Below are positions 6,364 to 25,178 of a DNA stretch of 64,000 bases, in pieces. The notes under the pieces were generated by a model, which was not told the origin of the DNA, did no database searches, and saw nothing but the letters and a program-made list of their open reading frames with translations. A program made the position numbers and the translations under genes. The DNA is from Bdellovibrionales bacterium. GTDB taxonomy: Bacteria; Bdellovibrionota; Bdellovibrionia; Bdellovibrionales; JAGQZY01. The DNA lies in assembly GCA_964230645.1 (NCBI GenBank), contig CAXRHT010000001.1, positions 954,219-1,018,218 of the forward strand, written 5' to 3'. Position 1 is the stretch's first letter; each line of letters starts with the position of its first letter.

Positions 6364-6621
6364 CTACTCCATTATGAACAGAATGGCCGCAGTTGGATTT
6401 AAATACCTCGAATGAGTATGGCAACAGTGGCAATCCTGACAATCTTCTTCAGGACAGGGCTTGTTGTCACCACTGGAGCAATGGTCGATGCCAGAATTAT
6501 CACAATCCTGTGCCATTTCCACTGATTCCGAGTGCCCTGAGTCCTCGATGGGACCGGCTCCATCAAGAGCAAAACTCGAAAAGAAACTGACTAAAATAAG
6601 GACTGTGATCCATAACTTCAT
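6364..6621 (-). CDS. Secreted Cys/His-rich CzcI-like leader protein (frame continues past TAG to an RPP motif, stop at 6280)
   Basis: Signal peptide MKLWITVLILVSFFSSFA, CPEEDCQDCHCCHTH; first gene of czc operon. Confidence 0.7.
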   Translation of the reverse strand: MKLWITVLILVSFFSSFALDGAGPIEDSGHSESVEMAQDCDNSGIDHCSSGDNKPCPEEDCQDCHCCHTHSRYLNPTAAILFIME

Positions 6622-6690
6622 TGCTATAGAGCATACTCTACATGTTGATCTCACGTCAATTCTCGCCCTTTTATGTCTCTTTTTGAAAGG

Positions 6691-7223: not shown

Positions 7224-7580
7224 TCAAAGAACGGGCTTGAAGAAAATCTGATGATCTTTGTTCTCTTCTTTTAAACGTTTAATCAACAAACTCCGGTTTA
7301 TAAAAAAAACTTCAGATCCAGCCTCAATGAAGACATCCGTATGAACAGGCTTTTCATTAAGTAGCTCTTTAAGAGCTATAAGCGTGGGACTCTCGATGAC
7401 CACCTTTGCCTGTTCTTTTTTAGGGAGTCTAACGCTCCCTCTAATCACCAGAACAGCAAGATTTGGAATTTGATTTTCGTAAACCAAATTCACTTCCTTT
7501 TTCAGACTGAGCTTTTCGAAACTCTGACTCAACCAGTAAAAGATTCTATTTTCGGTGTCGAGTTGATGGATTCCACACAT
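7224..7580 (-). CDS. Small cNMP-binding (Crp effector)-like domain protein without HTH
   Basis: LVYENQIP..AVLVIRGSVRL pattern like the Crp beta-barrel; follows Crp/Fnr gene; has its own FNR-like box. Confidence 0.55.
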   Translation of the reverse strand: MCGIHQLDTENRIFYWLSQSFEKLSLKKEVNLVYENQIPNLAVLVIRGSVRLPKKEQAKVVIESPTLIALKELLNEKPVHTDVFIEAGSEVFFINRSLLIKRLKEENKDHQIFFKPVL

Positions 7581-7646: not shown

Positions 7647-8363
7647 TTAAAAACCTAAAGAGGCCTCTTTTTCGATCGCCTCGATATCTTTTAAGATAAG
7701 GTACTTTTTATCCTGAACCAAATAACCGGACTCTTTAAAATCTGTGATCAGTCGAATGATATTTTCAGAAGCCGCACCAACCATTTGTGCCATTTCTTCT
7801 CTAGTCAGCTTAATATCCAGTAAAACGCCGTCGTCTTGTTGAACGCCGAAGTTTTCTTTTAATAAAAGAAGAGTTTCTGCAAATCGCTCTCGTACGTTCT
7901 TTCTAGCCATACTGGCTAAGCGCTCTTCAGCCGCTCCCATTTCTTTGCTCAACCGACTAATAATTTCTGAGGCCAACTGAGGCTCCATTTTAATGAGAGA
8001 CTGGATGGTATCTTTAGAGACAAAACAAATCGTTCCCTCTTCGATGACTGTGGCCGAGGCTGTGTAGGGAGAGTTGGAAAAAAGACTACGGTGTCCAACT
8101 ACGTCTCCTTTGTGAACAATCCGCACAATCGTTTCATCACCTTCGGAGTTGGTCTTTGAAATCTTGACCTTTCCGCTATGAAGACAATAAAGGCCAAAGG
8201 GAGGATTTCCCTCAAGAAAAAGGTTTTGTCCTTTTTTATAAACATTAGCATTTTTGGATTGGTCGAGTTCCTGAAGCGCCTTATCCTCAAGATGACAAAA
8301 AATACTTTTGGGTCTTCCCGGGCAATTATCACAACTTAATACTGTTTTCTTTTTTAGGCTCAT
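7647..8363 (-). CDS. Crp/Fnr family regulator, FNR-like (N-terminal Cys cluster)
   Basis: CDNC...C N-terminus plus internal Cys (TICF), cNMP fold, HTH LTREEMAQMVGAASENIIR; adjacent to cco genes. Confidence 0.9.
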   Translation of the reverse strand: MSLKKKTVLSCDNCPGRPKSIFCHLEDKALQELDQSKNANVYKKGQNLFLEGNPPFGLYCLHSGKVKISKTNSEGDETIVRIVHKGDVVGHRSLFSNSPYTASATVIEEGTICFVSKDTIQSLIKMEPQLASEIISRLSKEMGAAEERLASMARKNVRERFAETLLLLKENFGVQQDDGVLLDIKLTREEMAQMVGAASENIIRLITDFKESGYLVQDKKYLILKDIEAIEKEASLGF

Positions 8364-8417: not shown

Positions 8418-9830
8418 TCACGGCGCAAGAAGGATGAGCTGTCCTTTAAACTCCTCTGGGCCCTCCCCCTCATAAGATATTTCATAAGGAAGAAGCAATC
8501 GACCCTCTGGAACTTTACTGCGAGGAAAGCTTAAAAAAACATGGACCCAAACCGCTTGGCCAGGACTAATACTTTGGGCCATCGTCGGAGAGACCACTTG
8601 GATGTCTGCTTCGTCCACCTTTATTTCCCTGATTATTAACACCTGGTTGGTTTGGTTGGTCAAATGCACTCGAAAGTGGTTCACTATTTGGGTCTTTTCT
8701 TGGTTGGCAAACTGATAGGGGGATTCAATCGCCCGAACGACTTCAACTTCTAAGGACTCTCGTTGCGTTAGGCCTAATACAGCTCCTAGGAATAACGCCA
8801 GCAGAATCAACAGGTAAGAGATATTTCTAAAGGTAAAATAGTTCTTTTTACTTCCTTGAATTTCTGCCTCAGAGGCATAACGAATAAGCCCTTGGGGCTT
8901 GTTCACTTTGAGCATGATCTCATCGCAAGCATCCGCGCAAGCCGTACAGGCGATGCACTCCATCTGGAGGCCCTCCCTAATGTCAATTCCCGTTGGGCAG
9001 ACGTTTACGCATCGAAGACAGTTGATACAGTCCCCCTGGCTTTCTTTTGGTAGGCCTTTTTGCCGCCTTGGCTCCCCTCTTTTATGGTCGTAAAGGATGG
9101 CCATCGAATTGTCATCCATAAGGGCTGACTGGAGTCGACCATAAGGACAGGCAATTAAGCAGAATTGCTCTCTAAACCAACCAAAGTTGAGAAGTAAAAC
9201 AGCGGTAACCACCTGCACCGCCACAAAGAGTGACCAATTTTCGGAAGGAGCGTTTAAGGTAATGTTTAAGAGTTGCTTCGATCCAACGAAATAGGCAAAT
9301 GCCGAGTGAGTGATATGGGAGCTAGCGAGAAAAAAGAGAACCCACTTGATCGCCTTCCAGAAAAGAATTCTCGGTGTCCAATCCACTTTTTCAAGACGTC
9401 TTCTTTGAATGGCTTTACCTTCCGTCCACTCTTCTATGCGACGATAGATGAAATCGATAAACACAGTTTGAGGACAAGCCCATCCACACCAAACTCTCCC
9501 CCATACAGCCGTCATAAAAATAATGGAAAAGGCGGCGATAGCGAGGAGAAAAAAGACTAGAGGAGCGTCATGGGCGAAAAAAAGATTATCGAAAAACAGA
9601 AAGCGTCTTCTTGAAATATCTAAGAAGATGGTTTGCCGTCCATTAAACGTGGTCCATGGTACCACTAAAAATAAAATGATTAAAAAACCATAAACGAGAT
9701 TACGACGCTTTCGAAAGTACCCCGAAACCTCGGCTGGAATTATAAATAATCGGCGACCTGTTTGATCCAAACTGGGAGGCCGATCAGGAGCCACAAGAAA
9801 TTTTTCGTAGTCCTCTTTATTATTGCTCAT
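8418..9830 (-). CDS. ccoG: cbb3 oxidase accessory protein CcoG (FixG)
   Basis: GRVWCGWACPQTV, FREQFCLIACPYGRLQ, CINCLRCVNVCPTGIDIR, CIACTACADAC. Confidence 0.95.
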   Translation of the reverse strand: MSNNKEDYEKFLVAPDRPPSLDQTGRRLFIIPAEVSGYFRKRRNLVYGFLIILFLVVPWTTFNGRQTIFLDISRRRFLFFDNLFFAHDAPLVFFLLAIAAFSIIFMTAVWGRVWCGWACPQTVFIDFIYRRIEEWTEGKAIQRRRLEKVDWTPRILFWKAIKWVLFFLASSHITHSAFAYFVGSKQLLNITLNAPSENWSLFVAVQVVTAVLLLNFGWFREQFCLIACPYGRLQSALMDDNSMAILYDHKRGEPRRQKGLPKESQGDCINCLRCVNVCPTGIDIREGLQMECIACTACADACDEIMLKVNKPQGLIRYASEAEIQGSKKNYFTFRNISYLLILLALFLGAVLGLTQRESLEVEVVRAIESPYQFANQEKTQIVNHFRVHLTNQTNQVLIIREIKVDEADIQVVSPTMAQSISPGQAVWVHVFLSFPRSKVPEGRLLLPYEISYEGEGPEEFKGQLILLAP

Positions 9831-10414
9831 TCCACTTTTTCACCTTGAGGGGCTTTGGCTCCCGCAGGATTAGTCCCCTGAAGACTTTTTACGTAGGCAG
9901 CAATCAAAGGTTTTTTGTCGTTGGGAATTAAAGTTTCCCAGCCCGGCATCCCCTTAGTGGGAAAACCTTTATTGATGGCTGTCATAATGCTTTCAAACTC
10001 ACCTTTTGAGTGAATCCAAAACTTGTCCGTAAGGTTTGGTCCGATCAAACCCTGGCCTTTATCGCCATGGCAAGAAGCACAGAATTGAGCAAAGTTTTTC
10101 TGCCCTTCTTGTAGCATCTCAGGGCTATTTAAAATCGTCTCAAGACTAAGATCTTTCACAGCTGCAGCCGCAGTTTTCGCCTGAGTCGCTCTTTGATGTT
10201 TGATCCGAGCCATCTTTAACTCCAAAGCCTCGTCCGAGGAAAGCCCGCCTCCTCCCAACTCGTAGTGAATAAAATAAAGGAAGGCAAAGATCATAGTGAA
10301 AAAGAAAGTCCATAGCCACCAGTTTGGTAGAGGATTATCCAATTCCTTGATGCCATCGTACTCGTGACCTTCTACAAGTTTTTCATTTAATATCTCATCT
10401 TTTTTATCGCTCAT
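9827..10414 (-). CDS. ccoP: cbb3 oxidase subunit III, monoheme
   Basis: HEYDGIKELDNPLPNWW, single CASCH, GPNLTDKFW, KGMPGW; start taken at ATG 10414. Confidence 0.92.
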   Translation of the reverse strand: MSDKKDEILNEKLVEGHEYDGIKELDNPLPNWWLWTFFFTMIFAFLYFIHYELGGGGLSSDEALELKMARIKHQRATQAKTAAAAVKDLSLETILNSPEMLQEGQKNFAQFCASCHGDKGQGLIGPNLTDKFWIHSKGEFESIMTAINKGFPTKGMPGWETLIPNDKKPLIAAYVKSLQGTNPAGAKAPQGEKVE

Positions 10415-10592
10415 GAGAACCTCGCAATTCATCAGACTCTAAGGGCAGCATTTGTAAGTTTTGGTAAATATGGCGTCGAGACTTTAAGTTCACCCAAATG
10501 AGGACCCCCAAAAAGCAGACGAAGAACAACAAGAAGCCAAAAAGCACCAGGTTCGGATAATCGACAAAGTGAGCTAAAGTTTCTTTTTTCAT
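10404..10592 (-). CDS. ccoQ: cbb3 oxidase subunit IV
   Basis: 62 aa, one TM helix, C-terminal MLPLE, between ccoNO and ccoP. Confidence 0.8.
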   Translation of the reverse strand: MKKETLAHFVDYPNLVLFGFLLFFVCFLGVLIWVNLKSRRHIYQNLQMLPLESDELRGSHER

Positions 10593-12757
10593 TTTGCTAC
10601 CTCTTCTTTAACAGGGGTTGGTTTTTTCTCCTTTTGTCCAAGAGCTTGTAAGTAGGCTATTAGAGCAACGATCTCTCTTTGCTCCAAATGTTTATCTTTC
10701 ACACCTTGTTGCCTAAGATCGTTGGCAATCACCTCGGCCTCAGCTTCGGCAAACCGGTCGGCTTCCGCCACGACGTTATCCTCATAGGGTACTCCGAGCT
10801 TTTTCATCACAGAGAGTTTTCTTCTTAGCCCGTAGAAGTCAGTTTTACCGGTAAGAAGCCACATATAGTTAGGCATAATGGATTGAGATATTACATCTCT
10901 TGGATTGTTCATATGGCGATAGTGCCATAAGTTGGGATATTTCCCTCCCACCCTTGAGAGATCTGGGCCGGTTCTTTTTGATCCCCATTGAAAAGGACGA
11001 TCGTACATGGACTCTTCCACAGTAGAGGCTTTACCAAAGCGTAGAACGTCAAAGGGAAGTTTGCGAATCATCTGAGAGTGACAGGTGTAGCACCCTTCCC
11101 GGATATAAATATCCCGTCCTGCTAGTTCTAGTGGTGTATAAGGAGCTACAATTTTTTGTGGATCAACATAGCTCTTCATTGAAAGAATGGGCATGATCTC
11201 TATGACCGATCCCACCGCAATGGCCATAAAAGAAAGGACACTAAAAGTGAAGGCTAAACCTTCTAGCTTCCTGTGAGAGGTTTCATATTCAGGTCCTTTT
11301 TCCCGTGGCTGTAAAGGTTTACTCACGGGCGTGTCCTTAGCTTTTGCCCCTTCAGCCGTCATCGTTTTATAAAGGTTATAAAGCATAATGAAAGCACCAA
11401 GAATAAAGAGGAAGCCTCCGAAAGCTCTCACCCAATAAAGAGGGACAATACGAGTTACAGTCTCAACAAAATCAGGATAGACAAGGTTTCCTGTTTCGTC
11501 GATTGCCATCCACATAAGACCTTGGGTGATTCCTGCCGCCCACATGGAAATGTAGTAAGTGAGTATTCCTGTAAGACCAATCCAGAAGTGCATATTGGCT
11601 AGTTTATCGGAGTAAAGCTTGGTTCCGAAAAGACGAGGAATGAGATAATAGATCATTCCAAAAGTTAAAAAGCCGTTCCACCCCAAGGCCCCTCCATGGA
11701 CGTGAGCAATAATCCAATCGGTGTAATGACCAAGGGAACTGACCGACTTTATTGATAATAAGGGGCCTTCGAAAGTCGCCATTCCGTAAAAGGTCACGGC
11801 AGTCACGAGGAACTTAATCACTGGGTCTGTTCTTAGGAGGTGCCAAGCTCCTCTTAAAGTTAAAATCCCGTTGATCATCCCGCCCCAGCTTGGAGCCCAG
11901 AGCATCACACTAAAAACCATTCCCAGCGTCTGAGCCCAATCGGGAAGCGCTGTATTTAGCAAGTGATGGGGGCCGGCCCATATATAAATAAATATAAGAG
12001 CCCAAAAATGAATGATTGAAAGACGATAAGAATAAACCGGTCGGTTCGCCGCTTTTGGGATATAGTAATACATCAATCCCAAAAAGGGAGTTGTTAAGAA
12101 AAACGCCACGGCGTTGTGCCCATACCACCACTGAACCAAGGCATCTTGAATTCCGGCGTACACGGGATAACTTTGCAAATATCCTACAGGAATTTCAATA
12201 GAATTAAAGATATGGAGAACCGCCACGGTGATGATGGTCGCGATATAAAACCATATTGCCACGTACATATGTTTTTCGCGACGATTCTTTAAGGTCATGA
12301 AAAAGTTGAGCGCAAATAAAACCCAAATTAGAGCTATAGCGATATCTAGGGGCCACTCGAGCTCAGCATACTCTTTACTCTGTGAAAAACCGAGGGGAAG
12401 CGTAATTGCAGCACCAACAATGATGGCCTGCCATCCCCAGAAGTGAATTTTACTAAGCGTATCGGAGTACATTCGCGTTTTACAAAGACGTTGAGTGGAG
12501 TGATAGATACCTGCAAAAATAGCATTCCCAGCAAACGCAAAAATAGCGGCATTGGTATGTAGGGGACGAAGCCTTCCGAAGGTTAGCCACTCCATATTAA
12601 AGTTAAACTTCCAATAGGCTAGCTGTAAGGCGATCCATATACCCAAGGTAAAGGCCACAATACCCCAGCCTGTCGTTGCGTAAAGGAAATAACGAACGAT
12701 TTTGTCATCGTAGAACTCCTTTACCGAAACATTGTTTGTTTTACTTTTTTCTTCCAT
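10589..12757 (-). CDS. ccoN: Fused cbb3 oxidase subunits I/II (CcoNO)
   Basis: FGRLRPLHTN, QWWYGHNAV, WAGPHHL, HVH; C-terminal CcoO GCYTCHSQMIR, WGSKRTGPDL; GAGGAG RBS before ATG 12757. Confidence 0.96.
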   Translation of the reverse strand: MEEKSKTNNVSVKEFYDDKIVRYFLYATTGWGIVAFTLGIWIALQLAYWKFNFNMEWLTFGRLRPLHTNAAIFAFAGNAIFAGIYHSTQRLCKTRMYSDTLSKIHFWGWQAIIVGAAITLPLGFSQSKEYAELEWPLDIAIALIWVLFALNFFMTLKNRREKHMYVAIWFYIATIITVAVLHIFNSIEIPVGYLQSYPVYAGIQDALVQWWYGHNAVAFFLTTPFLGLMYYYIPKAANRPVYSYRLSIIHFWALIFIYIWAGPHHLLNTALPDWAQTLGMVFSVMLWAPSWGGMINGILTLRGAWHLLRTDPVIKFLVTAVTFYGMATFEGPLLSIKSVSSLGHYTDWIIAHVHGGALGWNGFLTFGMIYYLIPRLFGTKLYSDKLANMHFWIGLTGILTYYISMWAAGITQGLMWMAIDETGNLVYPDFVETVTRIVPLYWVRAFGGFLFILGAFIMLYNLYKTMTAEGAKAKDTPVSKPLQPREKGPEYETSHRKLEGLAFTFSVLSFMAIAVGSVIEIMPILSMKSYVDPQKIVAPYTPLELAGRDIYIREGCYTCHSQMIRKLPFDVLRFGKASTVEESMYDRPFQWGSKRTGPDLSRVGGKYPNLWHYRHMNNPRDVISQSIMPNYMWLLTGKTDFYGLRRKLSVMKKLGVPYEDNVVAEADRFAEAEAEVIANDLRQQGVKDKHLEQREIVALIAYLQALGQKEKKPTPVKEEVAK

Positions 12758-12953
12758 CTTCTGGCTCCTCACGAACTAGCGGTAAAACTTTCTTTTTTTG
12801 AATTTCAGAATCTTCTTCGTCATCAGATAAAGGTGAGTGTTTGGGGGTCTCTAGGTCCTCAAACTGATTGTCTTTTGTTGCCATTACAAACAAAACGATA
12901 AATAAAGTCACAAGAGTCACGGTAACAGGAATGGTGAGAACTAAGATTAACAA
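12741..12953 (-). CDS. ccoS: cbb3 oxidase assembly protein CcoS
   Basis: TM helix then QFEDLETP; between ccoI and ccoN. Confidence 0.85.
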   Translation of the reverse strand: MLILVLTIPVTVTLVTLFIVLFVMATKDNQFEDLETPKHSPLSDDEEDSEIQKKKVLPLVREEPEDGRKK

Positions 12954-15055
12954 CTCTTCTCCCCTTTCTTTTGTATATTTAAATAAGTCAGTAAAACTAC
13001 TGTCAGGGAGCTTAAGGGCATAAGTATGACGGCTACCAAGGGACTGATCAGGCCTAGAAGAGCAAAGACGGCAAAGCTAAGATTATAAAGAAAGGATAAA
13101 AAAAGATTTATCCAAATGGTCTGCACACAAACTCTTGAAAGAGTAAACATTTTAAAAAGTGGTTTGAGACTTTTTTCTAGCAGGTGAATACTAGAAGTTT
13201 TAAAAGTGACTTCCGCAGAAGAGTAGATAGAAACTGATACGTCCGCCTGTCTCATAGCCAGAGCATCATTGACTCCGTCTCCTACGAATAAAACCTTTTC
13301 CCCACGTTTCTGTAAGGCTTTTACGAGCTCTGTCTTTTGCTCAGGAGTTTTATTTGCAACAATCTCATGGTCTTTAAAACCAAGTTGCGCCCCCACCTTA
13401 TAAGCGACCTCGTTACTATCTCCCGTTAGTAAAAATAACTCTTTGTTGCTTTTTCGAAGCTCAGAGAGAACTTTAACGGAGTCTTCTTTAACCTCATCAC
13501 TCAGAATTGCACTCAGCCAGATTTCATTGTTTTTTAAGATCTCAACTTTTTTCTTATTAGAATCAAATCCATTGCGTATTTGATAAAGATCTCCACTGTA
13601 TTCTCCCCTAACTCCCGATCCAGCGATTTCACAAAGATCTTGCATAGGGAGGACGGCAACCTCTCCAATGGCGCGCTTTAAACTGATCGCAACGGGATGT
13701 TCGCTATTCTGCTCAAGGGATGAAATTATTTGTTTTTGCAGTGAACTCGGCTCACCCATAGGCCAACTTTCGATTTTAAATTCCCCCTGGGTCAGCGTTC
13801 CTGTTTTATCAAAAACAACAGTGGTAACTGCCTGTAGATTTTCTAGCGCGTCCACATTTTTAAAAAGAAAACCCTGCTTAAGACCCTTTCTCACACTGAG
13901 GCTATGAGCCAGTGGTGTCGCTATGGCTAGAGCACAAGGACAGGCAATCACGAGGAGAGCTAGTATTCGATCCAATCCATTAGGGATATCGAATATTGCA
14001 AAAAATAGATAAGAAGCCACAGCTATGGCAATAATCGCCAAGGTTAAAAATTGAGCGCCGCGATCGGCCAAAAGTTCCTTCTGACTCTCGACCGATAATC
14101 CTTTGTTGATCTTCTCTAAAAGGGCTGTCACTCGCGAACTCTGAACAGGCTCGAGCACACTTAAATAGGCTTTTGAGGAAATAAGTTTGGAGCCAGCATA
14201 CACCCGCCCCCGACGTTGAATCTGAACGGGAAAGGACTCCCCTGTGATGATCGAATTATCAATTTCAACTCTCTCAGAAAGTATTTCCGAATCCGTGGGA
14301 ATAAATTCATTGCGTCTTAACAAGATTTGATCCCCGAATTGAAGATTTGCAATAGCAGTCTCAACCCACTCGCCCCCTTTTTCCCGGAGGACAGTGTTTT
14401 GGTTAAAAAAGTCACTCAGATCCACGGGGGTTAAATACTTCTCTTGGAGACGAAATATTATGTAACGGGAGGCAAGCAGAAAAAAAACGAACATGGAAAG
14501 AGAGTCGAAGTAAATCTCATTTTTCCCGACAAGAAGGTTTTTTAAGCTTAAGGAGGCCGCACCTACAATCGCTAAACTGAGCGGAATATCAACGGAGACC
14601 CTTTTTTTAAAAAGGGAGTGGACCGAATTTTTTAAAAGGGGCCAGGCGCTATAAAACAGAACCGGAAGAAAAAGAAGGAAGCTCAGCCAATGAAACAAAA
14701 GTCCCAGTTCCGATTGATCAGCGCCCGCGTAATTCGAAGCCGAAAGCAGCATGATATTCCCAGCACAAGCTCCCGCAATAGCCAGTCGAATTAAAGGAGA
14801 ATGGCTCTTTTTTGAGTCCTTCTCTAAGCGACCGAGCAAACGAGCTTGAAAACCTGCCTTTTCAATGTTGGCTAGAAAGTCTTGAGGTCGAAAATGCTTA
14901 TTCGCTCTTGTTGAGACACGAGCCTCACTGAGATCCACCTCAAGACTCTCAACTCCTAAAATCCCATCCCCAATAGACTGGATCTTACGGACGCACTTTA
15001 TACAATGCATGCCCTCTACAGAAAAATGCCAATATTTTGAGGCCTCTATCTCCAC
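12947..15055 (-). CDS. ccoI: P1B-type copper ATPase (CcoI/FixI)
   Basis: HMA GMHCIKC, GNIMLLS, YFDS, TGES, CPC, DKTGT, GDGVND; cco context. Confidence 0.9.
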   Translation of the reverse strand: MEIEASKYWHFSVEGMHCIKCVRKIQSIGDGILGVESLEVDLSEARVSTRANKHFRPQDFLANIEKAGFQARLLGRLEKDSKKSHSPLIRLAIAGACAGNIMLLSASNYAGADQSELGLLFHWLSFLLFLPVLFYSAWPLLKNSVHSLFKKRVSVDIPLSLAIVGAASLSLKNLLVGKNEIYFDSLSMFVFFLLASRYIIFRLQEKYLTPVDLSDFFNQNTVLREKGGEWVETAIANLQFGDQILLRRNEFIPTDSEILSERVEIDNSIITGESFPVQIQRRGRVYAGSKLISSKAYLSVLEPVQSSRVTALLEKINKGLSVESQKELLADRGAQFLTLAIIAIAVASYLFFAIFDIPNGLDRILALLVIACPCALAIATPLAHSLSVRKGLKQGFLFKNVDALENLQAVTTVVFDKTGTLTQGEFKIESWPMGEPSSLQKQIISSLEQNSEHPVAISLKRAIGEVAVLPMQDLCEIAGSGVRGEYSGDLYQIRNGFDSNKKKVEILKNNEIWLSAILSDEVKEDSVKVLSELRKSNKELFLLTGDSNEVAYKVGAQLGFKDHEIVANKTPEQKTELVKALQKRGEKVLFVGDGVNDALAMRQADVSVSIYSSAEVTFKTSSIHLLEKSLKPLFKMFTLSRVCVQTIWINLFLSFLYNLSFAVFALLGLISPLVAVILMPLSSLTVVLLTYLNIQKKGEKSC

Positions 15056-15070
15056 CGAAGTACTCTCACT

Positions 15071-15175
15071 TTACCGCTTTAGTTTCGTTTGACCAAAATG
15101 CTTACGGCAAAAAAAGTAGACCACCACTGGGGGGAGAGTGATTCCAAAAAAAGCAAGAGCACACATAGGACACAT
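15071..15175 (-). CDS. Unannotated 34-aa CxxC membrane peptide MCPMCALAFFGITLPPVVVYFFCRKHFGQTKLKR
   Basis: AAGGAGG RBS 5 nt before ATG; TAA 15 nt upstream of ccoI start; hydrophobic core and basic tail. Confidence 0.7.
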   Translation of the reverse strand: MCPMCALAFFGITLPPVVVYFFCRKHFGQTKLKR

Positions 15176-15242
15176 AAAATCCTCCTTCCTATACCTTTTG
15201 TTATAAGGCACAGGTAAAAGGAAAAAAATGTGATCAGATAGG

Positions 15243-15270
15243 TGAAAACCTGATAAAAATCAGGTTTTCA
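15243..15270 (-). promoter_or_regulatory. FNR-type operator within a perfect 12-bp inverted repeat
   Basis: TGAAAACCTGAT-AAAA-ATCAGGTTTTCA upstream of the cco operon. Confidence 0.75.
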
Positions 15271-19968: not shown

Positions 19969-20331
19969 TTAAAAGAATAAGGGAGCTAGAAAAGCAAAAA
20001 AAGCTCCTGCCATCCATACCAGAGCTGAGAAGATTAGAATGACCTTAGAAACCTTGCGCGCTCTCATACAGGCCTGTGCCTCTTTGGCATCAATGGGACA
20101 GGGAGCATTACGGCTGCGATACTGAAAAATTGCAGCCATAGCTATCATCACTCCACTGCCAGCAAAAACCCAGGTTTTGTACTGAGAGAGCCACACAATT
20201 TGAGGCACTGCACTGACCAGACCTGCCATTGTCGCTCCAAGTCCCAGGGCGACCAACAAGCTTGGAAGAGCACAACAGAATAATGTTCCTGTCGAGGCAA
20301 AAAGAGAAAGGTAGGCTGAAAACTTTTCCAC
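19969..20331 (-). CDS. MerT/MerC-like metal transporter
   Basis: CCALP in TM1, loop CPID...C, three TM helices. Confidence 0.8.
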   Translation of the reverse strand: MEKFSAYLSLFASTGTLFCCALPSLLVALGLGATMAGLVSAVPQIVWLSQYKTWVFAGSGVMIAMAAIFQYRSRNAPCPIDAKEAQACMRARKVSKVILIFSALVWMAGAFFAFLAPLFF

Positions 20332-20720
20332 TATTTCACACCCACGAATTTAAAGCCCGCATCCGTCACGGTCTCTTCCATGACTTTTTTTGAAAGCTGC
20401 TGGCCTTTTTTAAATAAAATTGTCACCTCCATTTTATCAAGATCCACTTTCGTCTCTTTAACCTCTTTTTTGGCGTTAAAGTTTTTCTTTATTCCCTGGG
20501 CACAAAAAGCACAAACCATTCCTTGCACTTTGATCACGACCTTATCTTTAGAGATTTCCTTAAACTCCGCTTTTTTATCTTCCATTTTATGATCGTGACC
20601 TTCGTGTTTGTGGCCCTTGTGCTCATGCCGCTTGTGATTGTGATCTGATGATTGCGACTCAGCAAAAACAAAAGAGGTATTAATATTAAAAGTAAATAGA
20701 ATTAAGACTAATGTTTTCAT
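20331..20720 (-). CDS. Periplasmic HMA-domain metallochaperone with His-rich linker
   Basis: Signal peptide, HNHKRHEHKGHKHEGHDH, GMVCAFC. Confidence 0.88.
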   Translation of the reverse strand: MKTLVLILFTFNINTSFVFAESQSSDHNHKRHEHKGHKHEGHDHKMEDKKAEFKEISKDKVVIKVQGMVCAFCAQGIKKNFNAKKEVKETKVDLDKMEVTILFKKGQQLSKKVMEETVTDAGFKFVGVK

Positions 20721-20729
20721 AATTTTCTC

Positions 20730-21365
20730 CTAGAAATGAATAATATAGTTAAAACGAGTGATTCCTCGAAAGGATTGGCCGATTTCAAATAGTAAATTCT
20801 GATAGAAAAAGCGAAGCATAGGGGTTGTGTCTTCCATTACGAAGCCTTGCCCCCACTCGTTTTTTCGCCACTCAAGAATAAGCCATGCATGAAGTTCGTC
20901 AAAATCCCCCTCGTAAGGGGCAATTCCGACCCTCACTACACTCTGATAAAAAGCCGAATCCTCTTTGGTCAATAAGTTCATATGTTTTGCTAAGAAGTAG
21001 TAACGACGGTCTTCAATATCGTACTGAAGACCTACGGCACCTGTACCCTTTTGCTCGATCCCATCAAGTGTGCTTATCCCCCCACCCACGAGAGCATAGA
21101 GATTGCTTTGAAAAGATTTACCATTCCATCTTTTAAGTAAAAAGTTTGAGGTCACTACACTCGCCTTCAAATCCTGATCTTGCGGGTTTTGAAAGTGATG
21201 CACTCCTAAAGCCCACCAATACTCAAAGGAGTAATTGATCTGATTGTGAGCCATAAAGGGAGAGTGGTGCCCCATGATTCCTGTCGAACCTTTAAAGGAG
21301 ACAGGGTGAGCCTGGGAGGTAAGACTAAATACTACCATTCCCATGACTAAAATTAATTTAGACAT
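20730..21365 (-). CDS. Putative outer-membrane beta-barrel protein
   Basis: Signal peptide ending SQA-H, alternating beta pattern, C-terminal FNYIIHF. Confidence 0.65.
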   Translation of the reverse strand: MSKLILVMGMVVFSLTSQAHPVSFKGSTGIMGHHSPFMAHNQINYSFEYWWALGVHHFQNPQDQDLKASVVTSNFLLKRWNGKSFQSNLYALVGGGISTLDGIEQKGTGAVGLQYDIEDRRYYFLAKHMNLLTKEDSAFYQSVVRVGIAPYEGDFDELHAWLILEWRKNEWGQGFVMEDTTPMLRFFYQNLLFEIGQSFRGITRFNYIIHF

Positions 21366-21447
21366 ATTGTTCTCCAAAATTTAGTAATTCTCAAAAAGTT
21401 CGTTTTACTCGAACTTTCACAACCGAATTATAAAAAATCAGAGAATT

Positions 21448-21882
21448 CTAGATGATAAAAATTGAATAGAGGGATTGCCAGTCGGCAATCAAAGGGCGCT
21501 CAAGTTTTGGCGGAGGCCCCGTTGTTAATGCCGTTGTCTCAATCGGCTTCAGACTTGAAAAAGACAAATTTAGAACAGAGAAAACATGGGCTTTAACGAC
21601 TTCTACGACGGCTGTAGACTGACTGGGTACGAACTTCTGCTTACAAGCCTGTAGCGAGCAAAAGGGGCAATTCTCCTTTTGAGAACGGAACTTTTCCGTG
21701 TCATCCGTTTGTTTATTATGATGATTGGAAATTTGAGATTTGGAATGATGACTTTCCGAATGGCACGAGGCAGGTTCATCCGCTGAAGAGAGAAGGCTCG
21801 CACAACTATGAGCCACCCCTGATTGCCAAATGAAGGGGCTTAAAACAAGCCAAAATAAAAAGTTCTTAAAACCTTTTCTCAT
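21448..21882 (-). CDS. Secreted Cys/His-rich DUF2946-like leader protein with GPP motif
   Basis: Signal-like N-terminus, CHSESHH, CPFCSLQAC, TTGPPP near C-terminus. Confidence 0.65.
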   Translation of the reverse strand: MRKGFKNFLFWLVLSPFIWQSGVAHSCASLLSSADEPASCHSESHHSKSQISNHHNKQTDDTEKFRSQKENCPFCSLQACKQKFVPSQSTAVVEVVKAHVFSVLNLSFSSLKPIETTALTTGPPPKLERPLIADWQSLYSIFII

Positions 21883-21942: not shown

Positions 21943-23367
21943 CTAGCGGATCGGTGGGTCGTCGCAACGAAAGAGTTCGTTGTCGGTTTTCTCGCGGTCC
22001 AGTTGACTGGAGGCATCTCTAAGGGCTGTTCGCAAACCTTCTTCAACCACGGGATGATAAAAAGGCAATCTTAGCGCCTCCTCCACCGTTAAATCTAAGG
22101 AGATCGCCCAGGCAATTAGGTGGGCCAAATGTTCCCCATCGGGGGCTTGCAGCTCTGCACCGAGGATTTTCTTGTCTTTCTTTGCGACATAGACGTGAAG
22201 GATCCCCACCTCTTTTAATTTAACAATGCTCCTCCCCTGTCCCTCAAATGAAACATGCCCGGTGACAAAATCAATTCCTTCTTCTTTTAAGCTCTGATAA
22301 TTTTTTCCCACCGAAGCAATGTTGGGATCGGAAAAAACAATCGCCAAGGGAGTTCGCCTTTTGAAACAGGTCTCATCAGGAGCTACAGCATTATGTCCCG
22401 CGATTTTACCTTCATCGGCCGCCTCATGAAGAATGGGACGCTCGTTATTTACATCACCGGGGATAAAAATATGGGGGGCCTCTTCTAATCCCATTGTATT
22501 GCGATTGATTTTAGGCAGGCCTCTATCATTAACCTTCACTCCTGTTTTTTTGAAGTCGACTTTATCGATGTTTGGCGTTCTCCCGACAGCCATGAGTATC
22601 TTGTCGACAGAGTATTCTTTATCTTCTACTTTGATTGTAATCTGTCCCTTGTCATTGGTTCCAACCGGCTGGGCGGCTGAGAAATGAACATTCATCTCTT
22701 CAGTGACTTTACCAGAAACGTAGTCCTGCAGTTTCGGGTCTGTTAGTCCTCCTAGAGCTTTATTAGTGGTACAGGCCACAACCTCAACACCTAATCGGTT
22801 TAGAGCTTGGCCAAGTTCGAGTCCAATGACTCCCAAACCAAAAACGGCCATTTTTTTTGGAAGTTTCTCTAATTCAAAAAACTCATCGGTAGTCACAATA
22901 TTGTCGCGATAATCTTGCCACTCTTTCGGGATAAAGGGTCTGGAGCCTGTAGCTAAAATTATTTTTTTGGCTTCAATCTTTTCATCACCGACTTGCAAAG
23001 TATTTGGGTCAATAAATTTGGCACGCTCTCGCATGAGATGCTTTTCCCAATCCGTGAGCGAGCCCATCACTCCGCGCACGAAGCGATCGCGAAGCGTTCG
23101 CACGTGCTTCATAACTGCGGCGGAATCGACCTTAAGATCGTCTCCGCCCTCAATGCCCATTTGTTCAAACTTTTTTCTACGATCGTAATCGTTGGCGACT
23201 TGAATGAGAACCTTCGAAGGCATACAACCCACTCGGGCACAGGTTGTTCCAAGAGGACCATCATCAACGACAACGTAGTTGTCTGTATGACGAGCCACTT
23301 CTTTGCGGGCGGTTAGACCAGCCGTGCCGGCCCCGATAATTGCAACATCAAAGGTTTTCATTTTCAT
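21943..23367 (-). CDS. Pyridine nucleotide-disulfide oxidoreductase (dihydrolipoyl dehydrogenase-like, Prx-Grx associated)
   Basis: GAGTAG, GTTCARVGCMPSK, GLGVIGLE, YHPVVEE. Confidence 0.9.
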   Translation of the reverse strand: MKMKTFDVAIIGAGTAGLTARKEVARHTDNYVVVDDGPLGTTCARVGCMPSKVLIQVANDYDRRKKFEQMGIEGGDDLKVDSAAVMKHVRTLRDRFVRGVMGSLTDWEKHLMRERAKFIDPNTLQVGDEKIEAKKIILATGSRPFIPKEWQDYRDNIVTTDEFFELEKLPKKMAVFGLGVIGLELGQALNRLGVEVVACTTNKALGGLTDPKLQDYVSGKVTEEMNVHFSAAQPVGTNDKGQITIKVEDKEYSVDKILMAVGRTPNIDKVDFKKTGVKVNDRGLPKINRNTMGLEEAPHIFIPGDVNNERPILHEAADEGKIAGHNAVAPDETCFKRRTPLAIVFSDPNIASVGKNYQSLKEEGIDFVTGHVSFEGQGRSIVKLKEVGILHVYVAKKDKKILGAELQAPDGEHLAHLIAWAISLDLTVEEALRLPFYHPVVEEGLRTALRDASSQLDREKTDNELFRCDDPPIR

Positions 23368-23371
23368 CTCC

Positions 23372-24112
23372 TTATGAACTTAATACTTTTTTTAACTCTT
23401 CTGCTCCGCCAATATGTTCACCGTTCATGAAAATTTGTGGAACTTTTGTCACACCGCTGAGCGCTACAAGAGTTTTAACACTAAAATCTTCATTCAACAC
23501 ATGCTCTTCATAATCCACTCCGTTTTTCTTTAGAAGCTCTTTGGCCTCAAAACAAAATTCACAACCGGGGCGAGTGAAGATGGCTACTGACTTGGGGATT
23601 TCATAATCAGGATTGACATACTTTAACATGGTCACAGCATCGGAGGTATCAAACGGATCTCCATCCACTTCTTTTTCGATAAACATTTTCTCAATGGTTC
23701 CGTCGTTGACGAGCATCGAGTAGCGCCAAGTTCTTGGACCAAACCCGATATTTTTCTTATCGACTAAAAAGCCAAGCTTTTCCGTGAACTCACCATTTCC
23801 ATCGGGAATCATGGTGATGTTCTCTGCACCCTGGGTTCTCTGCCATTCGTTCATAACAAAAGTGTCGTTTACAGAAAGGCAAATGACGTCATCAATTCCA
23901 TTTTCTTTAAAGGCCTCCCTGAGTTCTGAATAGCGAGGAAGATGGGTTGAGGAACACGTCGGCGTATAAGCCCCTGGTAGGGCGAATAAAACCACCTTTT
24001 TTCCCTTAAAAAAGTCGTCAGAGGTTTTGTCCACCCACTTATGGCCCTGACGGGTCTTAAATGTGACTTGTGGCACCTTCTGGCCTGTTTTATCTTCTAA
24101 ACTCATATACAC
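23372..24112 (-). CDS. Hybrid peroxiredoxin 5-glutaredoxin
   Basis: [24 protein letters not shown]-terminal CEFC and VPQIF. Confidence 0.93.
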
Positions 24113-24166
24113 TCCTTAGTTCTGGTTGTTCACTGAATTAACTCCTCTAGTATGCCGCTGCAATTA

Positions 24167-24213
24167 ATAGATTGAAAATATTATTAATCTATAAGACAAT
24201 AGGTCAAAACTAT
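24167..24213. promoter_or_regulatory. OxyR operator in divergent promoter
   Basis: ATAG(24167)-N7-ATAT-N7-CTAT(24189)-N6-ATAG(24199)-N7-CTAT(24210). Confidence 0.7.
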
Positions 24214-24227
24214 CACGCGGAGAGCTT

Positions 24228-25178
24228 ATGGTCACCCTCACACAGCTACAATATGTTGTCGCCGTAGATAAAGAGCGCCACTTTGGACGAGCGGCAAAAG
24301 CTTGTCATGTGGCTCAACCCTCCCTTTCCATGCAAATTAGAAAAATGGAAGAAGAGCTTGATGTCGTTATTTTTGATCGCTCCAAAAATCCTATTGTACC
24401 CACTGTGGTGGGACTAGAGATTATCAAACAGGCCGAAATCATTCTGCAAGAACATCGGAAACTCGAGCCCCTAGCGCAAAGGGCAAGCTCCCACCCAAGA
24501 GGAAAGTTTCACTTGGCTGTGATTCCCACACTAGCACCCTATCTTATCCCATTTTTCATAGGGAGTTTTTCCAAGCAGTACCCTAAGGTTCAGCTAAAAA
24601 TCAGTGAAAACCAAACCGATGACATTATTAAACTACTTGAAGAAGACGAGATCGATGCCGGGCTTCTAGTGACCCCTCTTCGTGATGAAAGCATTGTAGA
24701 AAGGCATCTATTTTTAGAGCCTTTTTATGCTTATGTTTCCAAACAACATCCTTTAAGCTCAAAGAAGAGTTTGAGTGAGGGTGATTTAGACGACAAAAGT
24801 CTCTGGATTCTAGAGGAAGGCCACTGCTTTCGCGACCAGGTGCTTAAGGTTTGTTCATTTGACTCAAAAAATAGAGCTCTAGGAAATGTGGAGTTTTCAA
24901 GTGGCAATTTAGAAACTCTAAAAAATCTAGTGAGGAAAAACTCAGGGTACACCCTCCTCCCGGAGCTGGCATTGAGTGATATGAATGCCAACGAGAAAAA
25001 GCAATTTATTAGAAACTTCCGCAAACCCGTGCCCACTCGCGAGGTGAGCCTTGTGCATTCAAGAAGCTTCCTCAAAGAGCCTATTCTAAATGCACTCGAG
25101 GAAACTATTATTGCCAGACTTCCTAACAATATTCACTCACACAAGAGGAAAGACCTGGTCGTTGTTGATTTCAAATGA
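24228..25178 (+). CDS. oxyR: H2O2-responsive LysR regulator OxyR
   Basis: LysR HTH; GHCFRDQVLKVC with both redox Cys; divergent from Prx-Grx. Confidence 0.93.
   Translation: MVTLTQLQYVVAVDKERHFGRAAKACHVAQPSLSMQIRKMEEELDVVIFDRSKNPIVPTVVGLEIIKQAEIILQEHRKLEPLAQRASSHPRGKFHLAVIPTLAPYLIPFFIGSFSKQYPKVQLKISENQTDDIIKLLEEDEIDAGLLVTPLRDESIVERHLFLEPFYAYVSKQHPLSSKKSLSEGDLDDKSLWILEEGHCFRDQVLKVCSFDSKNRALGNVEFSSGNLETLKNLVRKNSGYTLLPELALSDMNANEKKQFIRNFRKPVPTREVSLVHSRSFLKEPILNALEETIIARLPNNIHSHKRKDLVVVDFK

Follow-up and report, generated by a model that had tools for sequence, protein, structure and literature searches.

A conserved CPxC microprotein gene directly upstream of ccoI in compact cbb3 oxidase operons of Bdellovibrionota

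The window, a 64,000-nucleotide stretch of DNA from a Bdellovibrionales bacterium, carries a cbb3 oxidase operon, and in front of its ccoI gene an unannotated reading frame of 34 codons with a CxxC motif had been noticed. The question arose of whether this frame encodes a real protein and, if so, what such a small protein could do for CcoI, the copper ATPase encoded next to it. The passage of copper from CcoI to the active site of cbb3 oxidases is only partly resolved, and small genes at the heads of respiratory operons are missed.

The microprotein gene and its orthologues

The minus-strand frame from 15175 to 15071 was translated into exactly the 34-aa peptide of the original prediction and ends with a TAA stop. 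The Shine-Dalgarno sequence AAGGAGG (15187-15181, minus strand) is located 5 nt ahead of the ATG and the stop is separated by 15 nt from the GTG of ccoI (15055), all as first read, the strand being minus. The 3.78-Mb genome contains four ATG-Cys-Pro-x-Cys starts and only one of them, the microprotein gene, is preceded by a Shine-Dalgarno sequence. Downstream and on the same strand follow ccoI (12947..15055; a P1B-type Cu ATPase of 702 aa, assigned by Pfam and motif alignment), ccoS (FixS; 12741..12953; Pfam PF03597 and orthologues, start codon approximate), a fused ccoNO (10589..12772; Pfam COX1 and FixO), ccoQ (10404..10592; assigned by position and orthologues, the FixQ match of E=0.0017 being below the cut-off), a single-haem ccoP (9827..10432; Pfam FixP_N and Cytochrome_CBB3), ccoG (8418..9830; Pfam Fer4 and FixG_C) and a Crp/Fnr-family regulator gene (7647..8363; Pfam) whose product carries a Cys cluster at the N-terminus. 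CcoI has one HMA domain and the CPC, DKTGT, YN and MPxSS motifs, but no N-terminal ATPase-cat_bd domain. An orthologue of the Crp/Fnr regulator was found beside the cbb3 operon in six of eight mapped regions. A stand-alone small ORF with a cNMP-binding domain (7224-7580, minus strand) accompanies the Crp/Fnr gene in the operon clade described below; it and its orthologues in L093-L096 and L098 have 112-168 aa.

Upstream of the microprotein gene, a terminator-like hairpin (15325-15312) follows the ccp gene, which encodes a di-haem peroxidase. It is followed by an FNR/Crp-like box, CTGAT-N4-ATCAG (15250..15263), which begins 88 nt ahead of the microprotein ATG and lies within a longer perfect palindrome (15268-15245). 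Because of this palindrome and the terminator-like hairpin, the claim that the peptide heads the cbb3 operon fits the locus. The box resembles the FNR/ANR box TTGAT-N4-gTCAA (PMC4742706, partial text) and is predicted to be bound by the operon's own Crp/Fnr regulator. A similar FNR-like box is present less than 300 nt from the HMA motif of ccoI at 10 of the 13 clade loci; no such box was found in G031 and G289, and the only one of G390 lies inside the upstream gene. The distance from the box to the HMA motif amounts to 239-282 nt at four peptide-bearing loci and to 121-157 nt at six peptide-less ones, and this difference indicates that the gene is gained and lost as a unit, a cassette ~100 nt long.

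Five other genomes have an orthologue immediately 5' of ccoI. Two of these orthologues came from inspecting the sequence upstream of ccoI in relatives, one of the same genus (G004, 32 aa) and one of another family (G035, 36 aa); two more were recovered with profiles from 384 genomes of the order (G284, 29 aa; G289, 40 aa), and a 401-genome sample of the phylum added one from outside the order (G390, 34 aa), which was the sole match among 127 genomes of its class. The peptide-bearing genomes thus come from four families of the order in all plus one genome of another class. When the order was searched again with a profile of seven rows, the same five matches were strong (E of 1.6e-7 or lower) and four others weak; eight weak matches of the earlier searches, six from the order and two from the phylum sample, were inspected and were due to chance. 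Protein databases contributed two further members, P0006 and P0010, which come without genomic context and bring the family to eight sequences; P0008 and P0009 were discarded as repetitive artefacts. A linked DNA pattern, searched in one genome per species, matched 14 loci, ten of them unrelated and four true; the latter encode peptides already known and stem from records of Bdellovibrionales, Bdellovibrionaceae or Oligoflexia. A linked-motif scan of viral contigs gave no match, a CcoI-based search for related loci gave none in genome contigs and two metagenome loci, neither with a peptide, and a tblastn search of plasmids yielded matches of E=6 only. Among the six peptides looked up, four have called genes on record, one of them labelled 'hypothetical protein'. 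The peptide and its seven aligned members matched no Pfam or NCBIfam model, and the only PDB chain found by profile search was a chance match (E=2.6). A resemblance of the peptide to small MCPxC proteins beside DUF899 genes is unconfirmed: a small MCPxC neighbour was present at none of the six DUF899 loci examined.

The gaps between the microprotein stop and ccoI are short in all six genomes (+15, +12, +10, +8, -4 and -4 nt), AGGA/GGAG-type Shine-Dalgarno-like sites precede all six genes and the gene abuts ccoI even where the upstream genes differ. Across the six genes, identity amounts to 0.50, 0.63 and 0.36 at the first, second and third codon position, and synonymous differences were found in 107 of the 170 codon pairs that encode the same residue; the partner CcoI proteins are only about 36-51% identical. 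The gene is real, it is under coding-type selection and it always lies directly 5' of ccoI. The refuting condition set with the original prediction, a lack of conservation of the ORF or the CxxC, does not hold, and the conservation of both speaks for a genuine small protein linked to ccoI. The CPxC is encoded 140-163 nt 5' of the HMA motif in the six genomes and is, thus, placed like an extra N-terminal metal site of CcoI. The peptide is not part of the CcoI polypeptide, however: it has its own stop codon in all six and shares the frame with ccoI in only two, so that stop read-through was rejected as a general explanation. Longer or fused forms were not seen among 690 candidates, which is weak evidence.

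The operon clade and its copper and assembly genes

In a tree computed rapidly from 42 CcoI rows, all six peptide-bearing loci fall into a 13-member clade (SH-aLRT 99) together with seven loci without the peptide, a distribution that requires at least three gains or losses. The peptide is confined to this clade and, being present in only 6 of its 13 members, is optional. A CcoN tree of 39 rows, from which G284 and G309 were left out, grouped the other 11 clade members (SH-aLRT 93) and, therefore, the peptide travels with the whole operon and not with ccoI alone. The operons of the clade are compact (ccoI-S-NO-Q-P-G) and their CcoI is without the additional Cys domain that is usual at the N-terminus. 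The CcoI clade cuts across genus, family and class, which suggests that the cbb3 operon moves as a module. In line with this, the cbb3 operons of this genome (G000) and of G004 belong to a different clade than those of six congeners (L016, L022, L025, L026, L028 and L030), pointing to operon replacement by horizontal transfer.

A trace of loss may be preserved in G027 (L003), where the last ~45 nt before ccoI hold a 15-codon frame that overlaps the ccoI start, has one mismatch in the head motif and is not preceded by a Shine-Dalgarno sequence. It is apparently a decayed remnant of the peptide gene, consistent with loss, and 5 of 2100 shuffles matched the one-mismatch head as well. The repeated loss and this apparent remnant could also be taken to mean that the ORF is translated but functionless or decaying and merely carried along with a mobile operon. 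We consider this very improbable, since the invariant head and the coding codon signature were retained although the partner CcoI proteins have diverged as far as given above. The ccoI gene of G289 (L100:1303-3421) is spread over four frames, which could reflect an assembly error or a decaying gene; the starts of the peptide, ccoS and ccoN look intact there.

Many CcoI proteins carry a fused N-terminal domain with four cysteines, and we compared its distribution with that of the peptide at 58 ccoI loci. These were chosen by similarity to the CcoI of the window out of 236 matching genomes and the clade is, therefore, over-represented among them. The fused domain was found at 17 loci, the peptide at six, neither at 35 and both at none; in four of eight such N-termini scanned the domain corresponded to PF12156 above the cut-off. 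All six partner CcoI proteins lack the fused domain, and a profile search for PF12156 found it in the proteins of none of five peptide-bearing genomes. The lack of co-occurrence (0/58) is about what chance would give (1.8 expected, with kin that are not independent). Since 7 of the 13 clade members and 35 of the 58 loci have neither, the peptide is not required as a replacement of the fused domain.

The same holds for CcoH, for which the peptide had been suggested to stand in. Such a replacement would make it an essential assembly subunit, and the FixH profile (PF05751) was indeed found in none of five peptide-bearing genomes. However, it was found in none of five peptide-less close relatives of the clade either, in a search whose control was positive in only 1 of 14 genomes, so that a divergent CcoH may be missed. 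The peptide, thus, does not track CcoH loss. Furthermore, CcoH is essential where tested (PMC8267372, partial text), yet 7 of the 13 clade members do without the peptide, which has no periplasmic domain and no match to the FixH profile of 150 positions. A role as CcoH substitute is accordingly most improbable, and this part of the original prediction is not supported.

A Sco homologue was present in all 30 genomes searched, and a periplasmic copper acceptor may, therefore, already exist. PCuAC was found in 6 of the 30, among them none of the six peptide-bearing genomes and two of the six peptide-less clade genomes searched (G031 and G344), a contrast that is suggestive only. A DsbD-like gene of ~220 aa (DsbD_2) is linked to ccoI in 12 long operons, all outside the clade, and is absent from the compact operons of peptide-bearing and peptide-less clade members alike. 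In the peptide-less G031 (L097:11890-14667), a Sco gene and a gene with a cytochrome c match are divergent from ccoI; the latter we take to be copper nitrite reductase-like.

Anatomy and proposed function of the peptide

M1, C2, P3 and C5 are invariant in all eight members and position 4 is M, V, I or L. The motif first read as MCPMC is, therefore, conserved as M-C-P-x-C, the second Met being variable. In the window peptide, the motif is followed by a 20-residue apolar stretch with a G-x-x-x-P break, Cys 23 and a Lys/Arg tail. The eight members have 29-40 aa and an apolar stretch of 19-25 residues, which is non-amphipathic and has a central Gly, usually with a Pro four residues on; six of the eight have a third Cys at position 21-24, at the end of this stretch. 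Asp and Glu are absent from all members and the 5-7 Lys/Arg residues are all located after the apolar stretch, so that the basic tail noted at the outset is a property of the whole family.

The single transmembrane helix of the original prediction is plausible, albeit weak. The apolar stretch is only marginally hydrophobic, with unweighted sums of +0.9 to +3.7 compared to -2.7 for CcoS and -5.1 for CcoQ, and an AlphaFold model from seven rows is of low confidence (pLDDT 66, pTM 0.31) and has helices at 3-10 and 16-30 with a break in between. According to the positive-inside rule, the Lys/Arg tail should be in the cytoplasm. A straight span with the N-terminus outside would place the CPxC at the periplasmic face, whereas a re-entrant hairpin with both ends inside would place it in the cytoplasm, beside the third Cys; we lean modestly towards the straight span.

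From its position, the invariant CPxC and the precedent of a CPAC site in the CcoI of Rhodobacter capsulatus, we arrive at the reading that the peptide is an optional, separately encoded, membrane-anchored Cu(I) site that serves CcoI on the route to CcoN. This is the reading we favour, tentatively and at a little less than an even chance: of the proposed copper-handling accessory of CcoI, the conserved ORF with its CxxC and the tie to ccoI stand, and the copper role is a best guess. The operon would be transcribed at low oxygen from the FNR-like promoter and the peptide would be translated just ahead of CcoI; in the two genomes in which its stop overlaps the ccoI start, synthesis of both would be coupled. 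The apolar stretch would then be inserted into the inner membrane, leaving the basic tail in the cytoplasm; as it is only marginally hydrophobic, it probably needs the helices of a partner for this. C2 and C5, together with M1 or the third Cys, may hold Cu(I). In the N-out form, which we take as default, the CPxC would lie where copper leaves CcoI on the periplasmic side and form a short relay in the direction of CcoN, and in the re-entrant alternative the peptide would be a split-off version of the CPAC site N-MBS1 of Rhodobacter CcoI. The peptide may be important only at copper scarcity, which would explain its repeated loss. The extra, glutaredoxin-like N-terminal CPAC site of R. capsulatus CcoI is important but not essential, and its function is fully rescued by added Cu; SenC is described as being bypassed by a mechanism yet unknown (PMC8475189, partial text).

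Against the reading as a Cu(I) site it has to be considered that a periplasm-facing CxxC is prone to oxidation, while the compact operons have no linked DsbD-like gene, and that adjacency to ccoI perhaps just reflects the first place in an operon that ccoI always opens. In G289, moreover, the peptide is intact beside a ccoI in four pieces, for which an assembly error could account. A prediction of the complex of CcoI and peptide scored 0.00 in two runs and, as the fold of the partner was uncertain, is uninformative either way. A stronger version, in which a membrane peptide of 30-40 residues docks on CcoI and transfers Cu(I) directly to CuB of CcoN and would thereby be the smallest known copper chaperone, we regard as unlikely. 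If true, it would identify the first recipient of the copper that CcoI delivers, and neither CcoH nor PCuAC nor a DsbD-like partner of its own would be needed for a compact, horizontally mobile cbb3 module to mature.

The cysteines could instead serve redox chemistry, with the CPxC as a glutaredoxin/DsbA-type dithiol that keeps copper or the cysteines of assembly factors reduced. The motif is glutaredoxin-like (PMC8475189, partial text), it is located at a helix N-terminus in the low-confidence AlphaFold model and a linked DsbD_2 gene is missing from the compact operons; but it is missing from the peptide-less clade members too, and the peptide has neither a thioredoxin fold nor an obvious reductant. 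We therefore consider a thiol-redox element improbable.

Relation to known small proteins and neighbouring loci

The closest precedent for a Cu(I) site that serves CcoI is N-MBS1 of R. capsulatus, which shares with the peptide a CPxC ahead of the HMA domain and an optional character (PMC8475189, partial text). N-MBS1 is, however, fused to CcoI and cytoplasmic, whereas the peptide is a separate product with its own predicted anchor, and simple topology prediction puts its CPxC outside.

In size and build the peptide resembles CcoM of Pseudomonas stutzeri and also CcoQ, CcoS and Campylobacter CcoX/CcoY, with about 35 aa, a predicted single span, a basic C-terminal tail and a link to cbb3; the N-out/C-in build of CcoM, CcoQ and CcoS matches the one predicted here (PMC4742706; PMC12648545, both partial text). 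The peptide could, therefore, be a small structural subunit or assembly factor that packs on CcoN or CcoP, its cysteines forming a disulfide or a secondary metal site. We give this about one chance in five. The lengths are comparable (29-40 and 35-39 aa), both have a basic tail and an FNR/ANR-type box, the N-out/C-in topology of CcoM is also predicted for the peptide, although the AlphaFold model breaks its helix, and both are dispensable for activity or, in the case of the peptide, for the operon (PMC4742706, partial text); moreover, the CcoN tree recovers the same clade, the peptide travelling with the whole operon. On the other hand, there is no sequence match to CcoM, no PDB chain matched at E < 2.6 and no Pfam or NCBIfam small-subunit model was hit. 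The ccoM gene lies outside the operon, and the available text on CcoM gives no metal-binding motif and contains the word 'cysteine' zero times (PMC4742706, partial text). The invariant residues of the peptide are confined to the CPxC head and do not mark out a face of the helix, a pattern that suggests a role in cysteine chemistry and not in packing.

Small membrane partners are also known for other P-type ATPases. KdpF stabilises the Kdp complex (PMC12648545, partial text), and mycobacterial PacL1 is a small membrane partner of a P1B-ATPase encoded in the same operon, whose metal-binding motif is needed only in some conditions (bioRxiv 2021.10.01.462712, partial text). A P1B-ATPase gene is likewise in the operon of the microprotein at all six loci, but the peptide has no sequence match to PacL1 and none of the eight members has its alanine-rich repeat scaffold region; the role of PacL1 is, moreover, zinc detoxification and not cofactor supply (bioRxiv 2021.10.01.462712, partial text). 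As far as searched, the peptide is a new family of putative small single-span helpers of the kind known from CcoM, CcoQ, CcoS, KdpF and PacL1, with the Cys pair as its only fixed feature. Such a peptide was not found in the literature searched, including the reviews PMC7558416 and PMC12648545 (partial text); subscription journals for the most part, and supplements, lay outside this scope and a small-protein catalogue could list one. The same literature contained no papers on a Bdellovibrio cbb3 ccoI. The family is rare (six genomes, eight sequences), optional and known here from genome sequences alone. A 34-residue peptide with an invariant CPxC can, however, be synthesised, and otherwise matching operons with and without it offer a natural comparison.

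The original prediction had also considered a copper-sensing uORF because of the LPP in the peptide, that is, a leader whose translation or membrane insertion in cis tunes ccoI expression to the copper or redox state. The gene is indeed the first cistron, it encodes a CxxC and its end overlaps the start of ccoI in two of six genomes. In this genome, the lower stem of a leader hairpin (15180..15222, minus strand; z -3.9 and -4.9) can bury the Shine-Dalgarno sequence of the peptide in transcripts that begin upstream of about 15221. The Shine-Dalgarno sequence would be buried in long or read-through transcripts and free if transcription starts near 15215. The hairpin is absent from the five orthologous leaders (z -1.0 to +1.0) and was, therefore, rejected as a conserved switch; nor was a conserved RNA structure found within the ORF or around the start of ccoI (z -0.8 to +1.1). 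The PP is present in only three of eight members, in the middle of the helix, and one member has no Pro there at all. The C-termini are unalignable Lys-rich tails without a RAPP or poly-Pro arrest motif, and in a product of 29-40 aa the CxxC would barely clear the ribosome tunnel before the stop codon is reached. CXXC-containing copper-sensing uORFs do exist (PMC9426467; bioRxiv 2025.02.05.636593, both partial text), and those of the CruR/CutF family (DUF2946) share with the peptide the first place in a copper-related operon and the CXXC. However, the uORFs of this family are far longer (CruR has 145 aa); they encode an export signal, have their CXXC in the interior and a RAPP or poly-Pro arrest motif at the C-terminus, and are followed by a long intergenic region. 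All of these features are missing here, and the peptide does not match PF11162 (DUF2946). CruR requires ~45 residues between its motifs as well as the long intergenic region (PMC9426467, partial text), whereas the gap to ccoI is only -4 to +15 nt and varies between genomes. Since the LPP is not conserved and there is neither an arrest motif nor a conserved RNA switch, a uORF of the CruR/CutF type is unlikely, and we rate a leader peptide of any kind as quite improbable, marginally above a thiol-redox element. A true DUF2946 gene only 6 kb away looks quite different from the microprotein gene.

This DUF2946 gene (21448-21882, minus strand; PF11162, 26.1 bits at a cut-off of 23.7) encodes a CPFC motif and, close to the C-terminus, a run of Pro. 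The operon that begins with it also contains the genes 20730-21377 (215 aa, no Pfam match), 20331-20720 and 19969-20331; among their products are an HMA protein and a membrane protein of 120 aa that has a Cys-Cys pair. The DUF2946 gene is likely a metal-sensing uORF in Bdellovibrionota. A Cys/His-rich exported ORF (6364-6654, minus strand), without a Pfam match over the cut-off, lies upstream of TolC-like, accessory and RND heavy-metal efflux genes; presumably it is CzcI-like. Also near the oxidase operon, the region 21943-25178 holds an ordinary oxidative-stress cluster in which the genes for a peroxiredoxin-glutaredoxin hybrid and a pyridine-nucleotide disulfide reductase are divergent from a LysR regulator, which we take to be OxyR-like.
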